A stretch of 64,000 bases of DNA, taken from contig JBFWWG010000004.1 of assembly GCA_050246315.1 (NCBI GenBank), positions 160,001 through 224,000 of the forward strand. Direction: 5' to 3'. The position numbers and the translations under genes were made by a program. The DNA is from Nitrospiraceae bacterium. GTDB lineage: Bacteria > Nitrospirota > Nitrospiria > Nitrospirales > Nitrospiraceae. The notes under the pieces were generated by a model. It ran no database searches, had not been told where the DNA came from, and worked only from the letters and a program-made list of their open reading frames with translations. Positions 13,199-37,615 of the stretch are shown piece after piece (position 1 is the first letter of the stretch; each line of letters starts with the position of its first letter).

Positions 13199-13570
13199 TT
13201 ATCCGAGCTTTTGCACACGTTCGACCGGGCTGACCACGTCGGTCAGACGGACGCCGAACTTTTCGTTGACCACGACCACTTCGCCGCGGGCCACCAAGCG
13301 ATGATTCACGAGCACCTCCAACGGCTCGCCCGCCAGCTTGTCCAACTCCACAACGGACCCCTGCCCCAACTGGAGGAGTTCCCGAATCACCATGCGGGTC
13401 GTGCCCAACTGCACCGACACCTGCATGGGGATATCCAACAACACATCCAGATTCTTTGCCCCTGCCAGCGGTTTTGCCTCTTGCGGTGGAATCGTCGCCG
13501 GTTGCCCAGCCGCCTCCGCCCCTGCTCCCGCTCCACCCATCGTCGCCTGACTGGATTCACTTCCATTCAT
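13199..13570 (-). CDS. fliN: Motor switch protein FliN
   Basis: LLDIPMQVSVQLG, GSVVELDKLAGEP, GEVVVVNEKFGVR. Confidence 0.97.
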   Translation of the reverse strand: MNGSESSQATMGGAGAGAEAAGQPATIPPQEAKPLAGAKNLDVLLDIPMQVSVQLGTTRMVIRELLQLGQGSVVELDKLAGEPLEVLVNHRLVARGEVVVVNEKFGVRLTDVVSPVERVQKLG

Positions 13571-19410: not shown

Positions 19411-19465
19411 GACGCAGGGCTAGTCCATCCGCGACAGCCCTGCCCAGACCGACGTGGAGGCTCCG

Positions 19466-20027
19466 GTGAGCGATCAGAATCGGAAATGGTATGAAGAACT
19501 GGGCGACCTGGCCCGTTATATCGAACAGACGATGCACGGCTTTCAGAACCTGCAACAGCCGATCGAGGCGGCATCGCACCAGCTCCCCCAGGCGACAGCA
19601 CACCTGTCGGACCTCCCCAAAATGAGCGAGGAGGCCACCCACAACGTGATGGGGCAAACCGAGGCCATTCAAGACAATCACGGCCGCCTGCTGGCAGCCT
19701 TGAACGGCGTCCTCGCCAGCCTGAGCCACGCCGGCATCGGCGGGCCGCTTTTGGACGACTTGGAGGCTATGCGACAACTGTTGAACGACGACGAGAAGCG
19801 GCTGATCGAAATCTTCACCGCCCTGTCGTTTCAGGATCTCCTGGCCCAGCGCGTCAATAAATTGGTGACCGTGCTGACTGATGTCGAACACAAGCTGCTG
19901 GAACTGCTCGTGATTTTCGAATCGCAACACTCCAATGGCCAACAAGGCGACCAGGACAAGACCGGCGACATGCTGAAGCGGCTGGAGACCTCCAAGACCA
20001 CTACCCTCAAACAGAACCTCGTAGACA
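19466..20027 (+). pseudogene. cheZ: cheZ-like phosphatase, 3' end truncated
   Basis: EEATHNVM, LSFQDLLAQR (DxxxQ); breaks at KQNLVD where the acidic/hydrophobic C-terminal CheY-binding tail should continue, then runs into MCP sequence. Confidence 0.8.
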
Positions 20028-20042
20028 CTGGAGGAAGAGCAC

Positions 20043-20618
20043 CCGGTCACGGAAGCCCAGACGGTCTTGAGCGCCGTCGCCCAAGGCGATCTCACGCAGC
20101 ACATGACCGGGACCTATCAGGGCGAATTGGACAAATTGAAAGTCAGTGCCAATACCGCGATCACGACCCTGCTGACCACGCTCACCACGGTCAGAGCGGC
20201 CGCCGAGAGTGTCAGCACCGGCGCCGAGCAGATCACCCGCGGCAATGAGGACCATTCCCAGCGGACAGCCGAGTAGACCAGCGCCTTGGAGGAAACCTCC
20301 GCCTCCATGCACGAGATGACCTCCACAGTGAAACAGAACGCGGACAATGCCAAACAGGCCAATCAGTCGGCCATCGCCGCCTGCGTCATCGCCGACAAGG
20401 AGGGGTGCCATCACCACCCGAGCCGTCAGCGCCATCGAGGAGATCAACAAGAGCAGCAAGAAGATCGCCGACATCATCACGGTGATCGACGAGATCGCCT
20501 TCCAGACCAACCTCCTGGCCTTGAACGCGGCAGTGGAGGCAGCCGAGCCGGAGAGCGCCGCCGCGGGTTTGCGGTCGTGGCGACGGAAGTGCGAAATCTC
20601 GCGCAGCGGTCGGCCACT
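20043..20618 (+). pseudogene. Methyl-accepting chemotaxis protein fragment
   Basis: HAMP-like AVAQGDLTQ, SQRTAE-TAG(20274)-[48 protein letters not shown]; one stop and two opposite frameshifts (~20400, ~20545). Confidence 0.88.
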
Positions 20619-20909
20619 ACGCGCGACCCGATCGCCGGCGTGGGTGGAAAGATCTATGAGAGGGCCATGGACGTTGGAGCCAACAACACTCGATGGGTCC
20701 TGGATTTCATGAGGCAGGAGGGCTTCGTCCCGGCGAAGATGGACCTCGGCGACGTACACCCCCACAAGGTGTACTTCTTCGCCCAGACCGGCCGGCTGCT
20801 GGTGAAGAAGATCGAACGGATCAAGAACGACACGATCTTCGCGCGCGAGGCGGAGCATCGGAAGCAACTGCAACGCGAGACGGAAGCGAGCGATGTCACG
20901 CTCTTCTGA
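20619..20909 (+). pseudogene. cheD: cheD fragment with an internal deletion
   Basis: RDPIAGVGG joined directly to [13 protein letters not shown]...DLGDVHPHKVYF...TGRLLVKK...DVTLF; the catalytic Cys and His segments are absent. Confidence 0.8.
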
Positions 20910-21014: not shown

Positions 21015-21770
21015 TCATCGAGTGGCCTTGATCGAGGCAGCGGGAATCGGTTGCGACGCTGGCGCATTGACAATTTGCTCGGTCAACTTTGCGGCTTTGT
21101 CCGGCCTGACCTGCGCCAATATGGCGCCCGCAGTCTTGCTCTTCACGGTCCGCAACACCTGCACGGCCATTGGAGACGGCATCTTCTCGATCCTGGCTGC
21201 CGCCTCTTCGGCCGGCATCCCTTCATACATCTTGGCAACGACGCCCAGTTTTGCCTGAGCCTCGGCCGCCTGCTGATCGCGAGTCTTGTTCTCCCGTTCC
21301 TGGTTCGTCTGTTGAGCCTGGCCCTGCTTCGTCTCGAAGGCCTGGACCGACGCTTCATAGCGTACTAACAGCTCCTCAAGGTCGGCCTTCAGATTTTCAA
21401 GCCGTTTCAGTTCGGCTCGCATTGCTTGCTCCCGGCGGTCCAGATAGCGTTTTCGTTGATCCAAGAGATCGAGCACCTCGCGGGGTACATCCACAGCCGG
21501 CCCCTGTACTCGTCGATCCTGGAGATCACTCTCTTTCGTCCCCACTTGTCCGCTCACCGGCATCCTGTCATCCGACGCGCTTGCGGGCGGCGACTTATCC
21601 GGTGACTCCGAAGCCGTCTCCGCCAAGCCGGCTGAGTCCGCCCCGATGCTCTGGACCGTGACTGCCAGGCAAGGCCCACTCGCGGCCAGGACGGACCAGA
21701 GGATCAATCGAACAACTCTCGTTCGGTTCGTCGGGCTACAGATCGGTGTCCCTCCCGGATCCCGTATCAC
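21015..21770 (-). CDS. MotE/YlxF-like flagellar protein (signal/TM, coiled coil, MgtE_N-like helical domain)
   Basis: LGVVAKMYEGMPAEEAAARIEKM....AVQVL...KSKTAGAILAQV.PDKAAKLT; GTGA overlap with the fliJ stop. Confidence 0.75.
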   Translation of the reverse strand: MIRDPGGTPICSPTNRTRVVRLILWSVLAASGPCLAVTVQSIGADSAGLAETASESPDKSPPASASDDRMPVSGQVGTKESDLQDRRVQGPAVDVPREVLDLLDQRKRYLDRREQAMRAELKRLENLKADLEELLVRYEASVQAFETKQGQAQQTNQERENKTRDQQAAEAQAKLGVVAKMYEGMPAEEAAARIEKMPSPMAVQVLRTVKSKTAGAILAQVRPDKAAKLTEQIVNAPASQPIPAASIKATR

Positions 21771-22198
21771 GTGGCGCCCCTCATCCACCGTCGCCCAGCG
21801 AGGTCGTCAAGTAGCCGTTGGTCGAGTCGTCGCTGAGCCTGCTGCCTTCGATTGGCCGCCCGCTTCATCACCAACTCGATCTTCTTTCGGTCTCGGACCG
21901 CCTCCGTCAGCTCCACTTGCTTTTTTGCGCGTCGCTCCATCGCCGAAGCCACCGCCCGCTCGACGTTGGTCACGGTCGCCTGAATCGCATCCCATTCGTT
22001 TACCCAACCCTGCGCGAGTCCCGCATGAGCCCCTCGTCGGACTTCCGTCACGAAGCGGTCCGCACTGTCATCCGCGATCTGTTGCCATTGCACGCGGACC
22101 TCGTTGACCTTCTGCACGGCCCGATCCAACTCCGCCAGCTCCATCCGCACGACTTCCTCGACCTGGACCCGGTATCGGTATAGTCGCAGCCAGCTCAT
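21767..22198 (-). CDS. fliJ: Flagellar export chaperone FliJ
   Basis: 143-aa coiled coil after fliI; LTEAVRDRKKIE...DQRLLDD. Confidence 0.8.
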   Translation of the reverse strand: MSWLRLYRYRVQVEEVVRMELAELDRAVQKVNEVRVQWQQIADDSADRFVTEVRRGAHAGLAQGWVNEWDAIQATVTNVERAVASAMERRAKKQVELTEAVRDRKKIELVMKRAANRRQQAQRRLDQRLLDDLAGRRWMRGAT

Positions 22199-23502
22199 CC
22201 CGGCTGTCCCGCCAATTGGATCAACGCCTCGACCGAGGCGGGAAAGCTGGCGCATTCGTCCTTCTCCTGCTTCAGATAGGCATGGATGGCCTCGATCATG
22301 CCGACGGCGCGGTCCAGTTTGGGATTCACGCCAGGTTTGTAGGCCCCCAGGGTGATCAGGTCTTCCGCTCGCTGATAGGTGGCCATCAATTCGACAACAG
22401 CGCGGGCCGCCGCATCATGCGCCGGCGTGATGATCCCGTGCATGACCCGGCTCGTGCTTTGAAGGACGTCAATAGCCGGATAGTGGTTCCGGGAGGCCAA
22501 ATCGCGGGATAGTACGATATGGCCGTCAAGGATGGAGCGAGCCGAGTCGGCGATCGGGTCGCTCAGATCGTCCCCCTCGACAAGGATCGTATAGAGGCCG
22601 GTCAGGGTTCCGCTGCCTTCACAGGTGCCGACACGCTCCAGCAGTCTCGGAAGCAGGGAGAACACGGAGGGCGTGTAGCCCTTACTGGTCGGCGGTTCCC
22701 CGATCGCCAGCCCGACCTCCCGCTGACCCTGGGCGAACCTCGTAAGAGAATCCATGAGCAACAGCACGTGCCGGCCTTGATCCCGAAAGTATTCGGCGAT
22801 AGCGGTCGCCAGGAAGGCTCCGCGAATCCGTACCAGCGGAGGTTGGTCGGACGTTGCGGCGATGACCACCGTGCGTTGCATACCGCCCGGACGGAGATCG
22901 CGCTCGAGAAATTCCTTCACCTCGCGCCCGCGCTCGCCGATCAGCGCAATCACGCTGACGTCCGCCACGACGTTCCGACTCAGCATCCCTAACAAAATGC
23001 TCTTCCCCACGCCGGCGCCGGCGAAGATGCCGATCTTCTGTCCCAGGCCGCAGGTCAGGAGTCCATTGATCGCCCGCACCCCAAGATCGAGCGGCTGAGT
23101 GATGCGCCGGCGATGGAGTGGATTGAGCGGCGCCTGATACAAGGGATACTCGCCCTCCGCCTCGATTGGTCCCTTTTCATCAAGCGGGTGTCCCAGGCCG
23201 TCCAACACACGGCCGAGCAGTTTGGGTCCGACCGTGACGGACGCTTGACGCCCCTTGGTCATTAAGCGACTGGCCGGACCGATGCCGTGCATGTCGCCCA
23301 ACGGCATAAGCATGATACGATCGCCGCGGAACCCGACCACTTCGGCCGTCAGCGGCGCCGAGCCGTCGTCGCGGGTGACTTCACACAACTCCCCGATGGT
23401 CGTGGCCGTCCCGTATCCTTCGAGGACAATCCCGGCTGCCTGGGCTATCCGCCCCTGCACCGTCAAGGGATCAAGCCCCTCAAGCAGGTCGATCCGCTTC
23501 AC
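22195..23502 (-). CDS. fliI: Flagellar export ATPase FliI
   Basis: GIFAGAGVGKS, IGERGREV, DSLTRFA, LDGHIVLSR; GTG start overlaps the fliH stop. Confidence 0.97.
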   Translation of the reverse strand: MKRIDLLEGLDPLTVQGRIAQAAGIVLEGYGTATTIGELCEVTRDDGSAPLTAEVVGFRGDRIMLMPLGDMHGIGPASRLMTKGRQASVTVGPKLLGRVLDGLGHPLDEKGPIEAEGEYPLYQAPLNPLHRRRITQPLDLGVRAINGLLTCGLGQKIGIFAGAGVGKSILLGMLSRNVVADVSVIALIGERGREVKEFLERDLRPGGMQRTVVIAATSDQPPLVRIRGAFLATAIAEYFRDQGRHVLLLMDSLTRFAQGQREVGLAIGEPPTSKGYTPSVFSLLPRLLERVGTCEGSGTLTGLYTILVEGDDLSDPIADSARSILDGHIVLSRDLASRNHYPAIDVLQSTSRVMHGIITPAHDAAARAVVELMATYQRAEDLITLGAYKPGVNPKLDRAVGMIEAIHAYLKQEKDECASFPASVEALIQLAGQPG

Positions 23503-24638
23503 GTGGTCTGCCCCTTCCTCAGGACCTCTGCCATCCTCGCCAATTGTCCGTCCAGCGTCGCATCGACACAATGAGTCGGCGTCTGGACCAGACAGCCGCC
23601 TGGCACAATGGCGGCATCGGTCTCCAACCGGATCGTCACAGGTCCGTCGCAGACAGCGGTCAACCGGTCGTGCACCGCTTCCAGCGTGGGCAGATCCCGA
23701 GGATGCATCAGTATCCGGATGACCGGACTCTCTCGAACCCGCAGCACGGCCTGCCTGGCCTGCTCGACGATCAGGTCCCGCTTCTCCGCAGCACAGTCGT
23801 GCACCACCTTGCAGGCGACCGTAAAGGCCAGCTCAACCGCTTCTGATTCGATCCGACCGGGTATTTCCGCACAGGCCTGGGCCAACCGGCGGACGGTTTC
23901 CACCAGGTACTGCTCCTGCTGCTTCGCCAGCGCGATTTGCGCCTCCGCGCGGCGCAGCCCTTCCGCCAAACCTCGTTCGTACTCTTGCGCGCGGCTTGAA
24001 GTCGCTCCCTGGGACTCGGTCCGGATCGCGTCTCCCCGCTCGTTCAGATCTGTCAGGCGGAAGGCGTTCAGGTGCACCCCTTGCATTTTGCACACCGTCT
24101 GCTTCAAGACCCGGTTCTCCTGACGGAGCCGTTGCACCTCGAGTACGCGCCGCACCGCCATGAGCACGTCGTTCGGTTTGAACGGTTTGGTAAGCATATC
24201 GGCTGCGCCCACTCTCATGGCTTTCACCGCCAACTCGACCGTGCCATGTCCGGTAACCATGATCGCAACCGCCTTGGGGTCTTGCCGAGTCACCTGTTCG
24301 AGCAGGGAAAGCCCGTCCATGTCGGGCAATCGGTAGTCCACCAGCAGAACGGAGGCCGGATGATCGGCGAGCGCTCGAAGGCCCGCCTGTCCGGTTTCAA
24401 CGGATCGCACGGCAAATCCGTTCTGCGTCAACAGCCGGGTCAGGAGCGTTCGAACGCCCTCCTCATCCTCGATGACAAGGACCTGCGTCGGCCCACCGCT
24501 CCAAGGTTGGGGTTCCTCCTGAGAGGCCGGTCCGCCGCCGGAGCGGAACGTTGAGAAGGAATCCTGTCGTCCGGATGAAGCCGTTACCATCTGTTCGCCT
24601 ACCTGATGCTTGTCGGCCGTTGTACCATCGGGAGTCAC
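23499..24638 (-). CDS. fliH: Receiver domain-FliH fusion protein
   Basis: REC (VIEDE, D101 in LLVDYRLP, T129, K151PF), coiled-coil linker, then FliH (YERGLAEG, IRILMHPRD, GGCLVQT..VDATLDGQL); occupies the fliG-fliI slot. Confidence 0.9.
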   Translation of the reverse strand: MTPDGTTADKHQVGEQMVTASSGRQDSFSTFRSGGGPASQEEPQPWSGGPTQVLVIEDEEGVRTLLTRLLTQNGFAVRSVETGQAGLRALADHPASVLLVDYRLPDMDGLSLLEQVTRQDPKAVAIMVTGHGTVELAVKAMRVGAADMLTKPFKPNDVLMAVRRVLEVQRLRQENRVLKQTVCKMQGVHLNAFRLTDLNERGDAIRTESQGATSSRAQEYERGLAEGLRRAEAQIALAKQQEQYLVETVRRLAQACAEIPGRIESEAVELAFTVACKVVHDCAAEKRDLIVEQARQAVLRVRESPVIRILMHPRDLPTLEAVHDRLTAVCDGPVTIRLETDAAIVPGGCLVQTPTHCVDATLDGQLARMAEVLRKGQTT

Positions 24639-25630
24639 ACCATAGCCTCGGCGCCCGCGCCTCCCACGACGATCTTGCCTTCCTCCTCCAATCTGCGGAC
24701 CGTCTGAAGGATCTTCTGCTGCGCCCGTTCGATGTCCGTCACCTTCGCCGGCCCCTTCGCTTCCATGTCTTCCCTGAGGCCCTCGGCCGCTCGGCTCGAC
24801 ATGTTCTTGAAGATCTTGTCCTTGATCGCATGACTAGCGGCACGGAGGGCGAGCGTCAGCTCTTCCTTCCCCACTTCTTTCAGCAATTCCTGAATGCCGC
24901 GATCATCGATCTTGATCAAGTCGTCAAACACGAACATGAGGGACCGGATCGTATCAGCCAGCGCGGCATCTCGTTCGGCCAGCTTGGCCATGATGGTCCC
25001 CCCGTTGGTCTTGTCCAACCGGTTGAGGATATCGGCTGTGACCTTCGTGCCGCCGATACTCATGGATTGCGGGCGGGAGCGATCTTGCAAGACTTCCTCC
25101 AACACGTCGCTCAAGTGTTGCAACATATCGGGCTGAACCTCGTCCATCGTCGCCAATCGATGCAGCGTGTCGCTCCGCAATCCCTCCGGCAGTAGCGCGA
25201 TGACCTGGCTTGCCTGTTCCGGGTCCAGATGAGCCAAGACCACCGCGATCGTCTGGGGATGTTCGACCCGTAGCAGAGTGGCCACCGTCTTGGCGTCCAG
25301 CCATTTCAGCGTGTCGATGCCCGGATAGGTTTCCGTGGTCAACGAACGCATCAACTGCGTGGCCTTCCCGGTGCCCAACGCCTTGTCCAGTACGGTCTTC
25401 ACATATTTCCTGCCCTCGACGCCGATCTCGCCGCCGGAGGCGGCCGCCTTGAAGTCCTGAATCACCTCATGCTCCTGCTCCTTGGAAATCGAAGACAGAG
25501 CTGCGAGGTGGGCGCCGAGCTTGCGAATTTCCGTGGGAGACAGATGCTTCATCACGGCAGCGGCGGCATCTTCTCCAATGGTCAACAGCAGAATCGCGGC
25601 CTTTTGCTCACCCGTGAGCCGGTTCGTCAT
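24635..25630 (-). CDS. fliG: Motor switch protein FliG
   Basis: KAAILLL, EHPQTIA, IGG, MFVFDDL, NMSSRAA. Confidence 0.97.
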   Translation of the reverse strand: MTNRLTGEQKAAILLLTIGEDAAAAVMKHLSPTEIRKLGAHLAALSSISKEQEHEVIQDFKAAASGGEIGVEGRKYVKTVLDKALGTGKATQLMRSLTTETYPGIDTLKWLDAKTVATLLRVEHPQTIAVVLAHLDPEQASQVIALLPEGLRSDTLHRLATMDEVQPDMLQHLSDVLEEVLQDRSRPQSMSIGGTKVTADILNRLDKTNGGTIMAKLAERDAALADTIRSLMFVFDDLIKIDDRGIQELLKEVGKEELTLALRAASHAIKDKIFKNMSSRAAEGLREDMEAKGPAKVTDIERAQQKILQTVRRLEEEGKIVVGGAGAEAMV

Positions 25631-25639
25631 GAAGACCCC

Positions 25640-27241
25640 TTATGCGTTGTTGTTGAGCCACTGCTTGACAACCAGTGCGGTGGATTCCGGATTGCTCTTG
25701 GCCATATCGAGAATCTGCGCGTGGTGGGACGCTCCGGGAAGGCCTTCGGCCCGTACCTGGCCGACAGGCATGGGGGAGTGGGGTGTCCCAGTCCCACCGC
25801 CTGCTCCGGCGCGCAGTCCCATCCTCGTCTCCGTATCGGAGGGAGCGGTCATCACCGCGATGAGCGGCCGGACGACAAAGAACAGGATGAGCAGAAACAG
25901 CACCGTGCCGACTCCATAGCGGACATATTGCGCCCACGACATCGGGCTGGAGGCGGCGTCAACGCTCGTGCCGGCGTCCTCCTCCTGACCGAATCCGAAC
26001 TGCGCATTCACCACCTGCACCTCGTCGCCGCGTTCTGCGTTGTACCCCATGGCTTTCTTGACGATGGCCTCGATCTGTTTCATCTCCTCCTCGGACCGGG
26101 GACTGTACTTCCTCGGCGCCTCTCCCTCCGTCACAGCCTGAGCGGTATCGCTCTTGACCATGTCATATCGGCCATCGACCAGCACGGCAGCGGACAGTTT
26201 CTTGACAGTGCCGATCGGTTCCACGATTTTGGAGACGGTCCGGCTGATCTCGTAATTGACGGTCTCGTTCTTGTTCTGGCTTGTGTTCGTGCTGGTCTGG
26301 GTCGGTTCTGCGTCTTTTCCGGGCGGCACATTGGACGCCACTCCCGGGACACCGCCCGACACTCCATTCGTTCCAGCCGACTTTTCCTGTGCCCGTTGCT
26401 CGCTCCGTACCACCTGGCCATTGGGATCGTATCGCTCCTCGGTCGTCTCGACCTGGCGAAAGTCCAACACACTCGAGACGCGCACCACCGCCTTATTCGC
26501 TCCCACGATGTGCTCCAACATGGTTTGGATGCGGCCTTCAATGTCCTTCTCGATCGTCCGCTGATATTCCAGTTGCGAATCCGTCAGTCGCGCGCCGTCG
26601 TCCTGCGACGACCCGGACAGCAATCGTCCATGCCCGTCTACGATCGTGACGTCTTGAGGTTGGAGCCCCTCCACGCTGCTCGCCACCAAGTGCACGATGC
26701 CCTGGATTTGCGCCTTGCTCAGCGACTGTGCTCCTCGGAGGCTCAGCACCACGGACGCGCGGGACCGTTCTTGATTGGCATTGAACAGTCGCCGCTCGGG
26801 AATCGAAAGATGAATCCGCGCGCGTTCGACCTCCGGCATCTGGGCGATGGTGCGCGCCAATTCTCCCTGCAACGCCCGCCGGTAGTTCACCTTCTGCACG
26901 AACTCTGATACACCCAACGACGTCCGATCGAAGATTTCGAACCCGAATCCACCGCCATGGGGCAGGCCCTGCCCGGCCAATTGGAGACGAAGATCGTGCA
27001 CCTGCGTGCTGGGCACGAGAATCGACGTGCCTCCCGCTCCCAGTTCGTAGGGCACCTTCATGTTCTTGAGCCGGTCCACGATGGAACCGGCATCATCAGC
27101 GGCAAGATTCGTGAAGAGCACCTGCATGTCCGGTTGCTGAGTCCAGAGGGCCACGGCGGCGAGACCGGCGATGGCGGCCGCGAGGGCAACCATGACCGCA
27201 AACCGTTGCGTGAGGGAGAGCGTGGCGAACTTCGCAAGCAT
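25640..27241 (-). CDS. fliF: MS-ring protein FliF
   Basis: GFEIFD, RALQGELARTI, ASSVEGL, two TM helices, VVKQWL. Confidence 0.97.
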   Translation of the reverse strand: MLAKFATLSLTQRFAVMVALAAAIAGLAAVALWTQQPDMQVLFTNLAADDAGSIVDRLKNMKVPYELGAGGTSILVPSTQVHDLRLQLAGQGLPHGGGFGFEIFDRTSLGVSEFVQKVNYRRALQGELARTIAQMPEVERARIHLSIPERRLFNANQERSRASVVLSLRGAQSLSKAQIQGIVHLVASSVEGLQPQDVTIVDGHGRLLSGSSQDDGARLTDSQLEYQRTIEKDIEGRIQTMLEHIVGANKAVVRVSSVLDFRQVETTEERYDPNGQVVRSEQRAQEKSAGTNGVSGGVPGVASNVPPGKDAEPTQTSTNTSQNKNETVNYEISRTVSKIVEPIGTVKKLSAAVLVDGRYDMVKSDTAQAVTEGEAPRKYSPRSEEEMKQIEAIVKKAMGYNAERGDEVQVVNAQFGFGQEEDAGTSVDAASSPMSWAQYVRYGVGTVLFLLILFFVVRPLIAVMTAPSDTETRMGLRAGAGGGTGTPHSPMPVGQVRAEGLPGASHHAQILDMAKSNPESTALVVKQWLNNNA

Positions 27242-28871: not shown

Positions 28872-28931
28872 CGGCAAGCGGTGCCGCGGCAGCTCACCCG
28901 GCAGGTTTTGCCGCGGAGGAATATTTGTCCT
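28872..28931. promoter_or_regulatory. Tandem palindromic enhancer boxes
   Basis: CGGCA-AGCGG-TGCCG (28872), CGGCA-GGTTT-TGCCG (28899), AGGAATATTTGTCCT (28917). Confidence 0.6.
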
Positions 28932-30369
28932 ACCCCCCGCCATATGGCCAGTCGCGCATAGATGGTCTCCCGATCGTGAGCTCCCGATACTCACGCAGCT
29001 TGTTACGCAGCGTCCTGACACTGATCCCCAATTCCTTGGCCGCCTTGGTCCGATTCTGATTCACACGGGCCAACGTGCCGACGATCAGCTCCCGTTCCAT
29101 GTCGCGAAGGGACCCTGTGGAGGGCACCTCTGTCCGACCTATGGGCTGAAGGGCCGTTGCCTGAGCCTGGGTGTCTGGGAGGCTCGGTTCGACCGGGAGG
29201 TGCATCGGATCGATCACTCCATTCCCGGTCAGCAGCACCGCCCGCTCGACTGCATTCTCAAGCTCGCGGATATTGCCTTTCCATGTCCGCTTGGCCAGTT
29301 CCTCCGCCGCCGCTTCGGACAACAACGGCACGGGGACCCCGTTGCGCGCTGCCGCCTGGTGGACAAAATGCCTGGCCAGCACGGCTATGTCGGCACGCCG
29401 TTCCCGCAACGGCGGCAATGTCACGGGAAACACATTCAAACGGTAGTACAGGTCCTCCCGGAACCGTCCCTGCTCGACCTCACGATGCAACGGACGATTC
29501 GTCGTTGCGATGACGCGGATGTTGATCGAGACAGGAGCAATCCCGCCGATACGATCCACCTCCCGTTCCTGCAACACCCGCAACAACTTCGCTTGAAGCG
29601 GTAGGGCCATCTCGCTGATTTCGTCCAACAGGATGGTACCCTGATGAGCCAGCTCGAACTTGCCAAGCTTCCGGACCATCGCCCCAGTAAAGGCGCCCCG
29701 TTCATGGCCGAACAGCTCGCTTTCCAACAACCCGTCCGGCAGCGCGGCGCAGTTCACCGCCACAAATGGCCGCTGCGCCCGAGGGCTGCGGCTGTGGATG
29801 AACCGAGCCAACAATTCCTTACCGGTTCCACTCTCCCCCGCGATGAGAATCGTCGCCTGCGAGAGCGCCACACTCTCCACTTGATTCAATAGTCGACGCA
29901 TCGCCGGATCGTCGGTCAGAATAGGGCGCGCGGGCGTCATCTGGGTGGTGTCCGCCACTGTCATCTCGAGGCCTGCTCCCGGAAGCCCCGACACGACTCG
30001 CTCCAACACGTCCGTCGCAAAGGGCTTCAGCAAGAAATCGCTCGCTCCCAGCTTGATCGCCTCGACTGCCGTTTCCACGGAACCGAAGGCGGTCATCACC
30101 ACGACGTGCGTCTGCGGTGTTCTCCGTTTGATCTCCCGCACCAGGGCAATGCCGCCCAGCCTCGGCATCTTCATATCAGTCAGCACCAACCAGGGCTTGG
30201 CGTCGGCCAACCGGTCCAACGCATCGCGGCCGTCGACGGCTTGGAACACCAAATAGCCTCTCCGTCGCAAAGATTCCGTCAGTGCGGTCCGCATGGCCGG
30301 CTCATCGTCCACAACCAGGACGGTCCGCAGCGGTGCGAGCGCAGTGTCCTCGACCGACCCCGTCAACAT
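28930..30369 (-). CDS. sigma54-dependent response regulator, FlrC/FleR/FlgR-like
   Basis: REC, GESGTGKE, ESELFGHERGAFTGA, LLDE, and a Fis-type HTH ending LGISVRTLRNKL. Confidence 0.92.
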   Translation of the reverse strand: MLTGSVEDTALAPLRTVLVVDDEPAMRTALTESLRRRGYLVFQAVDGRDALDRLADAKPWLVLTDMKMPRLGGIALVREIKRRTPQTHVVVMTAFGSVETAVEAIKLGASDFLLKPFATDVLERVVSGLPGAGLEMTVADTTQMTPARPILTDDPAMRRLLNQVESVALSQATILIAGESGTGKELLARFIHSRSPRAQRPFVAVNCAALPDGLLESELFGHERGAFTGAMVRKLGKFELAHQGTILLDEISEMALPLQAKLLRVLQEREVDRIGGIAPVSINIRVIATTNRPLHREVEQGRFREDLYYRLNVFPVTLPPLRERRADIAVLARHFVHQAAARNGVPVPLLSEAAAEELAKRTWKGNIRELENAVERAVLLTGNGVIDPMHLPVEPSLPDTQAQATALQPIGRTEVPSTGSLRDMERELIVGTLARVNQNRTKAAKELGISVRTLRNKLREYRELTIGRPSMRDWPYGGG

Positions 30370-31649
30370 GTGCGCGACTCCTGCCGTTCGTCGACTTGTC
30401 TCATCCTGCGACGAGCCTGCACACTCAGCGCCCGATTGTCCTGCGGCAGCACGACCGTCACAACCGTCCCCCGATTCAATTCGCTCTCGACATCCACTCG
30501 TCCCTCATGCCCCTCCACCAGGGCATGCACGATGGCCAGTCCCAGACCGGTGCCATCCTCGCGGGTCGTGAAGAACGGATCAAACATCCGAGACAGGTGC
30601 GCGGGCTCGATGCCTGTCCCCGTGTCCCTGACCGCAAGGTGAACCACCGGCTGATCCTGCAATGAACGGCGCTGCTCGCTCGCCGCGATTGTCACACGCC
30701 CGCCATCGGGCATCGCCTCCACGGCGTTCAGAATCAGATTCACGAGCACCTGACGCATCTGCATCCCGTCACACCACAGATTCGGCGGCGCCTTGTCCAG
30801 ATCGACCTCCATCGTCACGCGAGACCGGTTGAGGGCATGCGCCGCCAATGTCAGCGAATCGCTCACAAGCCCGTCGACTGCATGCCATGCCTTCTTCGGC
30901 TTCGCCGGTCTGGTATAGGTCAAGAGATTGGACAGCAATCGATCCATCGCTTGCACCGCGAGAGAGATATGCTCCGTGTAGGAGCGCAAGGTTGGGTCCT
31001 GCTCCAAATCCTGCCGCAACATCGATGCAAACAACTCGACGCTTCCCAGCGGGTTGCGAATCTCATGCGCGATGCGTCCGACCATCTCTCCCATTGATGC
31101 CAGACGATCCCGTCGGTGCAGCCGTTCCTCCAGCCGATGCAGGTCCGTGATATCGTGCAACAGAATCACCGTCCCCACCGCCTGTCCTCCGTCCCGATGG
31201 GCCAAGGTCCGCGACATCGTAATCAACGCCCCCGTCTTCGTGACCAAGGGGTAGTGCGTCGGACACGGCCAGGGCGGCTGATGCACCTCAAGCCCCTGCT
31301 CCTTCAGGAACGACTGTAATTCATGCCCGAGAATATTCTCCGTCCCGATACCCAACAACAGAGCAGTCGCCCGATTACAACGATGAATTCTTCCCTGCTG
31401 ATCTGCGACCAGCACGCCGGTGGACAACGACTCCAGGATGGCCTGGAGTTCGCTGCATACGGCTTCGTTCTTGAGCAGGTTGAGACGGAGCGCCTCGTTT
31501 CGGTCGGCCAGTTCAAGATCCAATTGCTCGACCTTGACCTGGAGCGCCCGATAGGACTGTTCCAGCGCCGCGGTGGCCGCTCCGAAACTACGGAACGCCT
31601 CTCGAAGCAGCTCAGCTCCGACCGGCTCTGTCGAGACCGCCTGATCCAT
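30363..31649 (-). CDS. Cytoplasmic PAS histidine kinase, FlrB/FleS/FlgS-like
   Basis: Coiled coil, PAS, AHEIRNPL H-box, NLILNA, DTGTG, FDPFFTT, GTGLGL. Confidence 0.92.
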   Translation of the reverse strand: MDQAVSTEPVGAELLREAFRSFGAATAALEQSYRALQVKVEQLDLELADRNEALRLNLLKNEAVCSELQAILESLSTGVLVADQQGRIHRCNRATALLLGIGTENILGHELQSFLKEQGLEVHQPPWPCPTHYPLVTKTGALITMSRTLAHRDGGQAVGTVILLHDITDLHRLEERLHRRDRLASMGEMVGRIAHEIRNPLGSVELFASMLRQDLEQDPTLRSYTEHISLAVQAMDRLLSNLLTYTRPAKPKKAWHAVDGLVSDSLTLAAHALNRSRVTMEVDLDKAPPNLWCDGMQMRQVLVNLILNAVEAMPDGGRVTIAASEQRRSLQDQPVVHLAVRDTGTGIEPAHLSRMFDPFFTTREDGTGLGLAIVHALVEGHEGRVDVESELNRGTVVTVVLPQDNRALSVQARRRMRQVDERQESRTC

Positions 31650-33831
31650 GATGCGTCCCCCTTTCTCGCGCCTGTTCCGTTCGAACAGTGGAGGTAATCA
31701 GCGCCATCGCCCGCCTGAGGACCTCGGTTCTGGCCGTGGCCCTGCCCTTGTCCGCGACCAAGACCGCCTCGTCGTACTGCCCTTGTGTCAACCACAATCT
31801 GGACAGCCGGAATCGAGCGTGCTCGGCCTCATTGGACGAAGGAGCGAGGCGAATCACATCTCCATAGCGCGCCGCTGCAGCCGCAGTCCGCCCGGCTTGC
31901 GCCAGGACATCCGCAAACCGCAGGATCGCGGGCACATCGGTGATCGCGCCCACCCGCTCCGCCAGATCAAAGGTCGCCGCCGCCTCAGCATGGGCTCCCA
32001 GCGAGGCCTGCGCCTCGGCCAATTGGAGCAGCATCTCATTGTACTGGGCGTCTTGCGTCGGCTGAGCGTCGTGCAGCTTGAGCCAGCGTCGACAAACCTT
32101 CACGACGCTGCGCGCATCACCCAATCGATTCCAGACATCGGCCAAGTAGTGCAAGGCTTCCATTCGATAAGGCCCCAACGGATTCTCCAGTTGGTACCGT
32201 TCAAAAACTCGTCGGGCGGCCTCCGGATCATCCTGATCGAGATAGGCGCGCCCAAGACCAATGAGGGCCTCTTGTCGCCAACGCGAACCAAGCTGTCGAT
32301 GGAGCACTTGTTGGTAGAGTTCCACCGCTCCTGCGCTGAAACCCAGACGCCGATGAGCATCCGCGCCGCGAATTACAAACTCCTCTTCCATGGCCAGGTG
32401 CTCAACACAGACATCCGAACGATGGAACGCTAGCACCACCCGCCAGTCGTCCGCCGATCGCAAGGCCGCTTCCAGAGCCGGCTTGGCTAAATCCGCAAGC
32501 CGCCGGCGCGCGACGGCCGGCCAGGGATCGCCGGATACGACGCCGTCACGCCGACAGGCGGACAGGAAATGGTGAATGGCTTCCTGTTCCTTGCCTGCCT
32601 CCTGGAACTGCTCCCCCAGTCGAACCAGCGCTTCGCTCGCGAGCGCATCAAACGCCTGTTCCTGGGAAACGGCCCGCAAGACTCGAACCCGTTGTTCGAA
32701 CGCCACGGGTAGCGGCGGTTGAACGTCGAAACTCATCTGCACCTCTAATGCGATTCGACGCTCGCCCGCCTGCTTGGCCAGATCCTGGCCGACCTCGGTC
32801 AGGCGCAGCCGTGCCCGACCCGCCTCCAGACTGTTCGGGAATCGGACGATCACCGTCCGATACAGCGTTTGGCTCGCTGCGATCTGACCGTCCTCGTCCA
32901 GGCTCTCTCCCCACGCCAACAGAGCGCGCGACGCCCGTTCATCGCGAGGATACAAATTGACAAATATGGACCAGAGTTGCCGTGCAGCTTTTCCCCGACC
33001 GTATTTATTTTCGATCTCGGCAAGTTCCAGCAGGCAGGATGGACAAGCACGGAAGGCCATCGGCCACCGCCGCATGACGGACTCAGCCAGCGCCGCCGCC
33101 TCCTCCCAACGGCCCTCGCCGTAGTGTGCCGCTGCCTCGCCGAGCGTCGCCCACTGCACGAGTGTTTCCTGCTCGGTACCGGTGCGAACCTGGTGAAACG
33201 CATGACGAGCTTGTTTCCATTCCTGCGCCGCCAACCATGTCATCCCCAATCCCAAGAAGGCCCGCGCCGCATCCCTGGCATTCGTCGATTCCGCCACCGC
33301 GCGCTGGTAGGCCGCTTGCGATTCGGCTGTCCATCCCAGGTCTCGGTAAAGATCGCCGATCCGCCAACGAGCCCGCTGAGCATTGGCCGATCCCGGAAAG
33401 TCGCGTATTAATTCGACGTAGTCTTGAACGACATCCAAGCGCCGCTGGGTCGTCTGCTCCCGATGAGCGGAAATCTCCGCAAGAAACGCACGCACCATCG
33501 GGACGACTACTGAGCCAGGAAACTGCTCCGCCGTTCGCCGGAAGTGCTGCTCCGCTGCATCCCATTCAGCATGGTCATAGAACACCATCGCATGGGCCAA
33601 CTGTAGCTCGGCAGCCTCCGTCAGTTGGGGTTCCGTGCGCGGTCCAGGATCAGGAAGGTCGGACCAGGCCAACGTCGCGCCCTGCCCAACAGTCGAACGT
33701 GACACGGAAGAAACCGGTTGAGCCAGACCGTCCGGCTCTGCCGCCGAGACTGAGCGTAGTATGGTCTGAGAGAACGGCACGGCCGTGATCAGGAGGACCG
33801 AGAGGGAGACGATGGTCGGTGGCATCCGCAT
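31612..33831 (-). CDS. Large TPR-repeat protein with a predicted signal peptide
   Basis: Repeated helical TPR units with FP.S-type turns; hydrophobic N-terminus; first gene of the flrBC-like operon. Confidence 0.85.
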   Translation of the reverse strand: MRMPPTIVSLSVLLITAVPFSQTILRSVSAAEPDGLAQPVSSVSRSTVGQGATLAWSDLPDPGPRTEPQLTEAAELQLAHAMVFYDHAEWDAAEQHFRRTAEQFPGSVVVPMVRAFLAEISAHREQTTQRRLDVVQDYVELIRDFPGSANAQRARWRIGDLYRDLGWTAESQAAYQRAVAESTNARDAARAFLGLGMTWLAAQEWKQARHAFHQVRTGTEQETLVQWATLGEAAAHYGEGRWEEAAALAESVMRRWPMAFRACPSCLLELAEIENKYGRGKAARQLWSIFVNLYPRDERASRALLAWGESLDEDGQIAASQTLYRTVIVRFPNSLEAGRARLRLTEVGQDLAKQAGERRIALEVQMSFDVQPPLPVAFEQRVRVLRAVSQEQAFDALASEALVRLGEQFQEAGKEQEAIHHFLSACRRDGVVSGDPWPAVARRRLADLAKPALEAALRSADDWRVVLAFHRSDVCVEHLAMEEEFVIRGADAHRRLGFSAGAVELYQQVLHRQLGSRWRQEALIGLGRAYLDQDDPEAARRVFERYQLENPLGPYRMEALHYLADVWNRLGDARSVVKVCRRWLKLHDAQPTQDAQYNEMLLQLAEAQASLGAHAEAAATFDLAERVGAITDVPAILRFADVLAQAGRTAAAAARYGDVIRLAPSSNEAEHARFRLSRLWLTQGQYDEAVLVADKGRATARTEVLRRAMALITSTVRTEQARERGTHHGSGGLDRAGRS

Positions 33832-33846
33832 CAGCAAGACCACCCC

Positions 33847-33941: not shown

Positions 33942-35393
<1,452 letters not shown>

Positions 35394-35656: not shown

Positions 35657-37615
35657 TTATGGGCCGATTCCGGCGGCCTGAACAGACAGATTTGGCGGCA
35701 TCCCCTTCGGTTGATCCAACACTTTTCGAACCCGGTTCGCCAGGGCATGCGGGGTAAAAGGTTTTTGCAAAAATTCGACGCGCGCGGCGACCACTCCGTG
35801 TTTAAGAATCTCGTCATCGGTGTAGCCGGACATGAACATGACCCTAAGTTCGGGGGACTGGCCGAGCAAATGTTCCGCCAGTTCACGGCCTCCCATCTGC
35901 GGCATCACGATGTCCGTGACGAGCAGGTCGATGGTGTCCCGATACTGACTGACGAGCAAGAGTGCCTCCATTCCATCGTTGGCCTCCAGGACCCGATACC
36001 CTCGCGATCGAAGCGTATCACGCACCAAGGCACGGACGGCGGGTTCGTCTTCCACCACAAGAATGCTCTCGGTCCCCCGTTGTTTGGCCACATCCTGATC
36101 TTCGGAATGCTCCAACGTCACCGCCCCCTCGATCCGCGGGAAGTACATGGTGAAGGTCGTCCCCCGCCCCCGTTCACTGGTCACGGTAACCAACCCGCCG
36201 CTTTGCTTGACAACCCCGTACACCGTAGAGAGCCCCAGCCCTGTTCCCTTGCCCTTCGGCTTGGTCGTAAAGAACGGCTCGAAGATGTGTGAGAGGACAG
36301 CAGGATCGATTCCGGTCCCGGTATCCGCCACAACGACCTGTACGTACCGGCCGGGAGCAGCATCGAGTTGCCGCTCGCCGAGTTCCTGCGGTCCCAAATC
36401 GATGTTGCCCGGCTCAATTATGATCCGGCCGCCTTCCGGCATGGCATCGCGCGCATTCACGGCCAGATTCAAGATCACCTGTTCAAGTTGGCCTGGATCG
36501 ACCCGAATCGTCCCGAGGTCGAGACAGGGCCGAACAAGCAGTTCGATGTTGTCCCCGGCCAGCGTGCGCAACATCTGTATCATGCCCTGCAGAACCGTGT
36601 TCACATCGATGACCTTCGGTTGCAGAACCTGGCGTCGGCTGAACGCGAGCAGTTGGGACGTCAGACCCGCCGCGCGTTCGCCGGCTTTCAGGATCTGATC
36701 GACACTCTGGCGTTGATCCTCCGTCAAGGTGTCGTCTTCGGCCAAGAGACATCCGTGACCGTTGATGACCGTCAACATGTTGTTGAAATCATGCGCGATG
36801 CCGCCAGCCAGCTTGCCGACCGCCTCCATCTTCTGAGATTGCCGGACCTGCTCTTCCAGTTGCTGCTGCTTGCTGAGATTGTGAAGGAGCACTTGCACAA
36901 CCTCGTTGCCCGCGCCATCCGCGGGGGCGGCCCGCAACTCCACATCCACTCCTTTGCCGTCCAGGCGCAGGCACTTGACGATCGTTCCGGCGACCGCCCC
37001 GGTTCGTTCCAAGCTGCCACGGATATGTTCGAGCTTGCTCCGGTCGTAGTCGGGATGAACAAAATCCCAGAGGGATCGTCCGGTAAGCTTCTCGGCGCTC
37101 GCCGCGCCGAATAGATTGGCGGCCTCGCGATTGGCGGAGACGACACGTCCTTTCTTCACCAGCACGATGGCCTCGGGAAACAGCTCAAGCAGACGCCGGT
37201 ACCATTCGTATCCCTGGCGGCAGACTTCAACCTGGTCCCGACACGGATGGTAATCGGCGATCAGGCCTCCCATCAGCGGCAGCGCTGTGGAATGACGGAC
37301 AGGGAAGGTCATGACGGCCGGAGCCAGCTCGGTGCCGTCGGGAAGGCATTGGGCTTCGATCATTCCTTCCTGACAATCGCCCTCGGCCATCCGTGCGGCC
37401 AGTGCCCGCATGTGCTCCCACCAGGCCTGGAGCTGAGGAGTCGGTTCCGTTGTTCCATCACTATTGACCGCGCCAGCGACCCGTCCGTATTTCAGCAGGA
37501 AGCCATGGTTGGCGTAAATCAGATTCCCGTCTCCGGACAGGACGAATAGCTTGGCCGGGTGCCGATCCAGTAGCACCGTGGCCAATTCCCGATGGTTGAA
37601 TCCAAGCAAGGACAT
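35657..37615 (-). CDS. PAS-domain hybrid histidine kinase (PAS-PAS-HisKA-HATPase-REC)
   Basis: GGIAHDFNNML, NLAVNARDAM, FEPFFTTK, GTGLGL; C-terminal REC LVTDIVMP...KPF. Confidence 0.93.
   Translation of the reverse strand: MSLLGFNHRELATVLLDRHPAKLFVLSGDGNLIYANHGFLLKYGRVAGAVNSDGTTEPTPQLQAWWEHMRALAARMAEGDCQEGMIEAQCLPDGTELAPAVMTFPVRHSTALPLMGGLIADYHPCRDQVEVCRQGYEWYRRLLELFPEAIVLVKKGRVVSANREAANLFGAASAEKLTGRSLWDFVHPDYDRSKLEHIRGSLERTGAVAGTIVKCLRLDGKGVDVELRAAPADGAGNEVVQVLLHNLSKQQQLEEQVRQSQKMEAVGKLAGGIAHDFNNMLTVINGHGCLLAEDDTLTEDQRQSVDQILKAGERAAGLTSQLLAFSRRQVLQPKVIDVNTVLQGMIQMLRTLAGDNIELLVRPCLDLGTIRVDPGQLEQVILNLAVNARDAMPEGGRIIIEPGNIDLGPQELGERQLDAAPGRYVQVVVADTGTGIDPAVLSHIFEPFFTTKPKGKGTGLGLSTVYGVVKQSGGLVTVTSERGRGTTFTMYFPRIEGAVTLEHSEDQDVAKQRGTESILVVEDEPAVRALVRDTLRSRGYRVLEANDGMEALLLVSQYRDTIDLLVTDIVMPQMGGRELAEHLLGQSPELRVMFMSGYTDDEILKHGVVAARVEFLQKPFTPHALANRVRKVLDQPKGMPPNLSVQAAGIGP

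Follow-up and report, generated by a model that had tools for sequence, protein, structure and literature searches.

An in-frame fusion of a candidate phosphorylatable receiver domain to the flagellar export protein FliH in Nitrospiraceae

Flagellar assembly is controlled through transcription, through export-substrate switching and by second messengers. Signals can also act directly at the flagellar base: CheY binds FliM/FliN, a CheC-like domain is fused to FliN in FliY, and cyclic di-GMP binds FliI. In all of these a signalling module or a messenger bypasses transcription and reaches a structural protein of the flagellum; we know of none among them in which FliH or the ATPase complex bears a phosphorylatable receiver. 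Here we describe REC-fliH, a gene that encodes a receiver (REC) domain and FliH in a single reading frame. It lies in a stretch of 64,000 nucleotides from a Nitrospiraceae bacterium (GenBank assembly GCA_050246315.1, contig JBFWWG010000004.1, positions 160,001 to 224,000), hereafter the window, to which all coordinates refer; (-) denotes the minus strand.

The closest described relatives of the protein belong to two families. The receiver-linker units of NtrC1 and DctD are dimers when unphosphorylated and are re-arranged by phosphorylation. Aquifex NtrC1 and DctD are the nearest solved relatives of REC-FliH by sequence and fold, linker included; in REC-FliH, however, FliH takes the place of their AAA+ and DNA-binding domains. 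With canonical FliH (FliH/SctL, PF02108; Salmonella FliH2-FliI) it shares the gene position, the C-terminal domain, the long helix with a glycine repeat, the N-terminal anchor motif and the status of sole copy, but it has about 185 extra N-terminal residues (tail, receiver and linker), so that the anchor becomes internal. The pertinent sections of PMC4185386 describe how the extreme N-terminus of Salmonella FliH (Trp7, Trp10) binds the valine patch of FliN and FlhA, localising FliI to the basal body, and glycine repeats are a FliH feature treated in part of PMC2674601. A third likeness is to flagellar assembly checkpoints built on two-component systems, namely Campylobacter FlgSR and the FlrBC/FleSR of polar flagellates, in which, according to passages of PMC3760246 and PMC7064773, a kinase and its receiver are coupled to the export apparatus and to sigma-54 activators; there the phosphorylated protein is a transcription factor, whereas in REC-FliH the receiver lies within the export machine. 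No description of a receiver-FliH fusion was found in the searchable full-text literature, whose coverage excludes subscription journals, and the fusion is not mentioned in the passages that a term search found in two preprints (10.1101/2021.01.01.425057, 2021; PMC13277936, 2026). Within that literature, the statement of an initial annotation of the window that there is no characterised example holds. REC-FliH is a real, conserved and apparently unpublished variant of the response-regulator and FliH families.

REC-fliH is one uninterrupted frame of 379 codons plus stop in the list of open reading frames (ORFs), at 23499..24638 (-). It occupies the canonical fliG-fliH-fliI position as the sole gene between fliG (24635..25630, -) and the gene of the export ATPase, fliI (22195..23502, -), both assigned by Pfam. 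A GTGA overlap joins it to each neighbour: at 24635-24638 the fliG stop overlaps the REC-fliH start, and at 23499-23502 the REC-fliH TGA stop overlaps the GTG start of fliI. The GTG start codon at 24638 stands behind GAGG. Most homologues and the ESM Atlas record begin at the position of residue 17, where the frame has an ATG; the start codon, and hence the first 16 residues, is uncertain, which does not affect the fusion. Pfam places Response_reg (PF00072) at residues 53-162 with 94.6 bits (cut-off 30.2) and FliH (PF02108) at residues 241-368 with 54 bits (cut-off 24.1). Neither the AAA+ family PF00158 nor the helix-turn-helix (HTH) family PF02954 has a Pfam match in REC-FliH, in which FliH follows the linker instead; the protein is not a member of the sigma-54 enhancer-binding family. 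It is the only PF02108 match in the whole genome, which is 100% complete in 30 contigs. The NCBIfam FliH equivalog NF004270 scores REC-FliH at 61.1 bits, below its cut-off of 180; by sequence it is a divergent FliH, as are the other FliH proteins across the phylum.

The frame is supported by independent sequencing data. Across 22900-25300, four public runs, each from a different study, contain neither insertions nor deletions. A contig of 1897 bases from an RNA library spans 22925-24821 with zero differences, and a DNA contig, from a run that may be the window's own source, spans 23252-25300 with one difference. The parts of 22900-25300 left uncovered in the RNA runs X16 and X18 carry no meaning. 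REC-fliH is present in RNA-library contigs from several studies, which is evidence of presence rather than proof of transcription.

The architecture of the protein was analysed on an AlphaFold2 model, a monomer built on 31 homologues (mean predicted local distance difference test score, pLDDT, 82). Residues 1-50 (24489..24638, -) form an N-terminal tail that is predicted to be disordered, with pLDDT below 50 at residues 5-44. The tail contains W46, conserved in some members of the family: a tryptophan occupies its column in about 15 of the 31 homologues and lies close by in a few others, and many show, when the printed alignment is read by eye, a second aromatic residue some 12-15 positions before W46. 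By analogy with the two N-terminal tryptophans of canonical FliH, it is conceivable that the tail may serve as a second docking peptide.

The receiver domain (residues 51-154; 24177..24488, -) is modelled confidently over residues 52-154 as five strand-helix units with pLDDT above 90, the (beta-alpha)5 fold. Foldseek matches it to the NtrC1 receiver 1ZY2 with a template modelling (TM) score, normalised to the target, of 0.90-0.95 and a root-mean-square deviation of 1.0-1.1; the list for the whole model is filled by receivers and is uninformative for the FliH half. Among solved structures, the closest in sequence are the Aquifex NtrC1 receiver constructs 1ZY2, 4L4U and 1NY5 (E about 1e-40), together with the DctD receiver (1QKK, 1L5Y). 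The pocket residues E57-D58, D101 (codon GAC at 24336-24338), T129 and K151 are all present. D101, T129 and K151 are invariant among 31 aligned cluster representatives, down to 35% identity, and are retained in 29 of 30 genome copies, which points to selection on the phospho-site. D58 is at least 90% conserved in the 31-sequence alignment; the exceptions among genome copies are D58G in genome G252 and D58A in G044. Judged by these residues, the genome's sole FliH keeps everything required for phosphorylation and is a predicted phosphorylatable response regulator with an entire FliH as its output module.

Helix alpha-5 of the receiver extends into a coiled-coil linker (residues 155-185; 24084..24176, -), modelled as one continuous helix. 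The alignment to the NtrC1 (1ZY2, 4L4U, 1NY5) and DctD structures continues through this linker, which is better conserved than most of the receiver: in the 31-sequence alignment L171 and E174 are invariant, and R172, N175, L178 and K179 are at least 90% conserved. From the heptad V168-L171-N175-L178-V182-M185, with asparagine at an 'a' position, we infer a parallel two-stranded coiled coil. The junction with FliH can be placed only between N175 and G187, because a similar [RK]-[VL]-[LV]-K stretch stands at the joint in both parents.

The FliH anchor region (residues 186-212; 24003..24083, -) lies directly behind the linker and is modelled with low confidence. Its counterpart in stand-alone FliH from the phylum's other families is, by alignment, the opening 20-30 residues. 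Those proteins have a short basic start, followed 8-12 residues on by the motif V-[QKR]-P-[YF]-x-[PL]-x-x-[FL]-[DN]; the matching stretch in REC-FliH is G187-V-H-L-N-A-F193-R-L195-T-D197-L198. Among 71 sequences, whose rows overlap because some genome copies and cluster representatives are the same protein, 52 share D197 and 70 have a hydrophobic residue next to it, at 198. This anchor is the predicted docking segment for FliN and FlhA, retained after the fusion. It is now a loop of about 27 residues between the NtrC1-type linker and the long central helix of FliH (residues 213-285; 23784..24002, -), which carries the glycine-repeat stretch YERGLAEG with G223 and G227 invariant and is presumed to be a dimeric coiled coil, as in known FliH. 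The C-terminal globular domain (residues 286-379; 23502..23783, -), matched by Pfam to residue 368 and modelled confidently over residues 288-378, is the part expected to hold FliI. A sequence comparison of the FliH half with solved structures found no FliH, only three chance-level matches. The expected docking partner of the anchor, FliN, is encoded at 13199..13570 (-); its residues V98-V101, the counterpart of the valine patch, are invariant in 35 homologues. A complex prediction, made with alignments, of two FliN SpoA domains and REC-FliH 168-235 gave no verdict (score 0.00, mark 0.32).

Most of this architecture had been proposed in the initial annotation, and it agrees closely with the present analysis. 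The uninterrupted frame between fliG and fliI with its two GTGA overlaps is borne out by the ORF list and the DNA; the strings RLRQENRVLKQ, AFRLTDL and YERGLAEG are all found in the protein; and the receiver residues are exactly where they had been placed. The linker that had been called NtrC-type does have Aquifex NtrC1 and DctD as its nearest structures, and the likeness of AFRLTDL, part of the anchor stretch, to the FliH N-terminal anchor is upheld by the alignment with the stand-alone N-termini of the phylum.

The source of the receiver can be traced to the same flagellar cluster. A sigma-54 activator with REC, AAA+ and HTH domains by Pfam, here termed ACT1 (33942..35393, -), lies 10.7 kb upstream of REC-fliH. 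A second sigma-54 activator recognised by Pfam, ACT2 (28930..30369, -), lies downstream of a kinase with a PAS domain (the PAS kinase); it is closest to the FlbD/FleR types, with NCBIfam matches below cut-off. The REC-FliH receiver is 41% identical to that of ACT1 and 38% to that of ACT2, and among all other receivers of the genome that of ACT1 matches it best, with a narrow lead (127.9 versus 120.0 bits). A profile of the fusion family finds a receiver in a frame of 470-510 residues about 10-11 kb from fliH in most genomes of the window's own family (f1), those with an unfused fliH included. ACT1 receivers score 164-195 bits against this profile in most sister genera and about 152 bits in genus g5 (G083, G136); the top-scoring receivers otherwise present in the phylum reach about 150-159 bits, a range that includes the g5 value.

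In a tree built by a quick search from 72 receivers and 127 columns, with the ACT1 rows picked as the best profile scorers, the 31 REC-FliH receivers and 17 ACT1 receivers of the family fall into one group, with a support of 94 in the Shimodaira-Hasegawa-like approximate likelihood ratio test (SH-aLRT). The group excludes 20 other receivers of the window's own genome and four high-scoring receivers of other families, one of which (G275) stands at the ACT1 position. Inside it, the REC-FliH receivers form one clade (support 88). In sister genera, ACT1 has the same linker as REC-FliH to about residue 184, where the AAA+ domain follows. ACT1 of the window's genus and of g5 has lost the linker string, so in the window's genus the linker survives only on FliH. 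Taken together, the sequences indicate that receiver and linker are a duplicate of those of ACT1, joined in frame to the very N-terminus of FliH, with the ACT1 lineage as the donor. The initial annotation had proposed a receiver plus helix grafted onto the anchoring end of FliH; the architecture stands, and the source is narrowed from any NtrC-type protein to ACT1.

The combination of Response_reg and FliH is carried by 33 protein clusters with 38-100% identity, whose source names, where given, are Nitrospira, Nitrospiraceae or Nitrospirota. Its taxonomic spread, which the initial annotation had proposed to check, was determined in two samples. In a sample of the phylum (301 genomes, 140 with FliH), 40 of the 43 FliH-bearing genomes of family f1 match the full-length fused profile, and the fusion was found in 0 of the 97 FliH-bearing genomes of other families; 96 of these have FliH in frames of 136-302 residues, and G111 has only a sub-threshold match. 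In a sample of f1 itself (201 genomes of 39 genera, 110 with FliH), FliH is fused in 103 of 110 genomes, or 102 of 109 without the unpublished genome G305; G342, matched from profile position 72 on, is counted among the 103. The seven unfused genomes are G065 and G343 (genus g4), G285 (g10), G310 and G338 (g132), G328 (g149) and G092 (g2). In G092, G065 and G285 the unfused fliH was read directly between fliG and fliI; for G343, G310, G338 and G328 the unfused state is deduced from the absence of a full-length profile match. The fusion is the rule in the family and is not fixed.

Broader searches returned members of the same family. A profile search of 1.84 billion proteins gave 12 full-length family representatives and one fragment among the best 150 matches, the rest of which are multi-receiver proteins crowding the list, so that distant independent fusions could not have appeared among them. 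The FliH half, compared with longer proteins, matched only 7 members, of the same family, and the ESM Atlas holds four Response_reg+FliH clusters, all mostly Nitrospirota.

The history of the fusion was examined in a tree of the FliH part (39 rows, 186 columns, quick IQ-TREE with SH-aLRT support only), with six stand-alone FliH from outside the family as the root. Genera g4 and g10 form the sister group of the rest of the family (support 95), every member of which is fused except G092. The latter is nested within the fused sequences of its own genus (support 96); its receiver is deleted, and a remnant of the linker still stands ahead of the anchor. Because of the sister position of g4 and g10 and the nesting of G092 among fused sequences, the tree reads as one gain and one later loss, in G092.

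Two histidine kinases in the window had been named as candidate partners of the receiver, and Pfam recognises both as real kinases. One is the PAS kinase (PAS-HisKA-HATPase; 30363..31649, -) and the other a hybrid kinase (PAS-HisKA-HATPase-REC; 35657..37615, -) directly upstream of ACT1. NCBIfam gave no name to the activators or kinases, every match being below cut-off. The core of the cluster runs ACT1, TPR protein, PAS kinase, ACT2, flgB, flgC, fliE, fliF, fliG, (REC-)fliH, fliI. This order is identical in the window, in the fused genomes G252 and G140 (by Pfam) and in the unfused G285, and in the fused G219 it agrees by ORF sizes only. In all four clusters inspected the core retains the PAS kinase and no other kinase. 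The hybrid kinase, a member of a very large paralogous family, adjoins ACT1 only in the window's own genus g1 (G000, G318) and the sister genus g5; upstream of ACT1 there is a HAMP histidine kinase with a third activator in the fused G252 and G140, and unrelated genes in the unfused G285. The module in G252 and G140 also contains a protein of about 260 residues without a Pfam family, and no HTH was detected in its sigma-54 activator. The TPR protein between ACT1 and the PAS kinase (31612-33843, -) has 743 residues; proteins of about 720 residues stand at its place in G252, G219, G140 and the unfused G285.

As discussed above, REC-FliH combines a receiver and linker of NtrC1 type with a complete FliH, and a mechanism can be proposed by analogy. 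We give about an even chance to a model in which phosphorylation of D101 re-arranges the receiver/linker dimer and thereby alters the docking of FliH2-FliI on FliN and FlhA. The unphosphorylated receivers and linker would be a zipped dimer, as in NtrC1 and DctD. Upon phosphorylation of D101 the receiver/linker dimer would be re-arranged, changing the freedom or the spacing of the two anchor peptides, which in turn would alter the docking of FliH2-FliI on the C ring and the export gate. A kinase signal would in this way adjust the export of flagellar proteins after translation; should ACT1 and REC-FliH share a kinase, this could go hand in hand with transcription. The conserved linker, joined directly to the anchor, suggests that a signal is passed into FliH and not only absorbed, and the mechanism is plausible. 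In a stronger form, phosphorylated D101 at the motor base would unzip the linker and free the FliN/FlhA anchor, as a first case of two-component gating of a type III secretion ATPase; the flagellar kinase would then possibly be the one serving ACT1, with export licensed by the signal that switches on the flagellar genes. We put this form forward tentatively and regard it as less likely than not.

Several observations count against such a switch, above all against an indispensable one. The receiver is deleted in G092, and in G136 (the same protein as representative P0130) it has decayed by D101G, T129V and K151V in an otherwise intact fused gene, so that the phospho-function is dispensable there; the other six of the seven genomes listed above likewise have FliH in unfused form. 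No kinase that tracks the fusion was found in the small set of clusters compared, and none is adjacent in all fused genomes. In 14 genomes, the kinase-facing helix alpha-1 of the receiver shows no sign of a partner shared by REC-FliH and ACT1 (identity 0.36 within the same genome versus 0.32 across genera). The behaviour of the linker in REC-FliH, moreover, is extrapolated from work on NtrC1 and DctD. The beta5-alpha5 region, compared between REC-FliH and ACT1 in the same number of genomes, gave no signal of co-variation either (0.37 versus 0.38).

Among the alternative explanations, the one that survives best takes the FliH receiver as a feedback device or phosphate sink, which drains the kinase of ACT1 or holds it at the base of the flagellum. 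Sigma-54-dependent flagellar transcription would thereby receive information on how completely the export apparatus is assembled, while the activity of FliH would be little changed. The FliH receiver is a paralogue of the ACT1 receiver, and its loss or decay in some lineages fits an accessory regulatory function; kinases that need the export apparatus, the MS ring and the rotor for activity are reported for Campylobacter FlgSR and other polar flagellates in portions of PMC3760246 and PMC7064773. The lack of any sign of shared kinase specificity between REC-FliH and ACT1 argues against this explanation, as do the high conservation of the linker and the fact that the anchor follows it directly, and we regard it as unlikely. 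It is also improbable that receiver and linker are only a constitutive scaffold that gives the FliH spoke one more means of dimerisation or a spacer, with no role for phosphorylation: such a scaffold would account for G136, where the fused gene is kept with a receiver lacking D101, T129 and K151, and for the replacement of D58 in G252 and G044, but the presence of the three residues in 29 of 30 copies and all 31 representatives would not be expected without selection.

A further alternative is that two products are made, with a FliH of normal size translated from an internal start at V177 or L178 and the full-length protein being a minor isoform or a regulatory one. Stand-alone FliH genes start in the region that corresponds to the junction, and in the window AGGAG, within Gln-Glu-Asn codons, lies 9 nt ahead of TTG-178; these codons, however, encode conserved residues that are also present in ACT1, which explains the AGGAG. 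GTG or TTG occurs at 177 or 178 in 19 of 30 genome copies, but the remaining 11 have no start-type codon at either position, and the frequency does not demonstrably exceed ordinary valine and leucine codon usage. The internal start at MQGVH that had been suggested earlier is not a conserved feature, M185 being found only in the closest relatives. We consider two products very unlikely. Finally, an assembly artefact, in which a frameshift or mis-assembly joined a separate receiver gene to fliH, is refuted and has next to no probability left: runs from four studies have zero indels, contigs cross the junction, and the same frame is found in 103 genomes and 33 protein clusters, so the fusion is neither unique to this assembly nor without read support, either of which the initial annotation would have taken as refuting its proposal. 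Re-arrangement of the receiver/linker dimer by phosphorylation is the explanation that we prefer.

The rest of the flagellar region includes fliF (25640..27241) and fliJ (21767..22255), Pfam-assigned neighbours of REC-fliH. Downstream of fliJ, the ORF at 21015-21788 (-) has a weak MgtE_N match of 22.7 bits, below cut-off; it may be the FlbB/FliG-like protein known at the equivalent place in other flagellar clusters. A plus-strand insert at 19454-20909 interrupts the minus-strand cluster. It begins with a CheZ-like ORF (19454..20248; PF04344, 8e-15), after which the signalling domain of a methyl-accepting chemotaxis protein (MCP) is found in two frames, with profile positions 17-62 in 20347..20712 and 61-98 in 20286..20909; the latter frame runs on into a C-terminal fragment of CheD. 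The MCP-CheD pieces look like a frameshifted or mosaic gene.

REC-FliH is unusually testable, since the parent of its receiver is known and the junction is defined to about ten residues. The family itself offers natural controls, namely unfused FliH, receiver-deleted FliH and FliH with a dead receiver. Nitrospira-type nitrite oxidisers are key organisms of wastewater treatment, and to our knowledge the regulation of their motility has been little studied, although no search was made on this point. The sequence of the fusion hints at a kinase signal that acts directly on the machine that builds the flagellum; if the receiver acts, there would be a direct post-translational route from a sensor kinase to the type III export machine.

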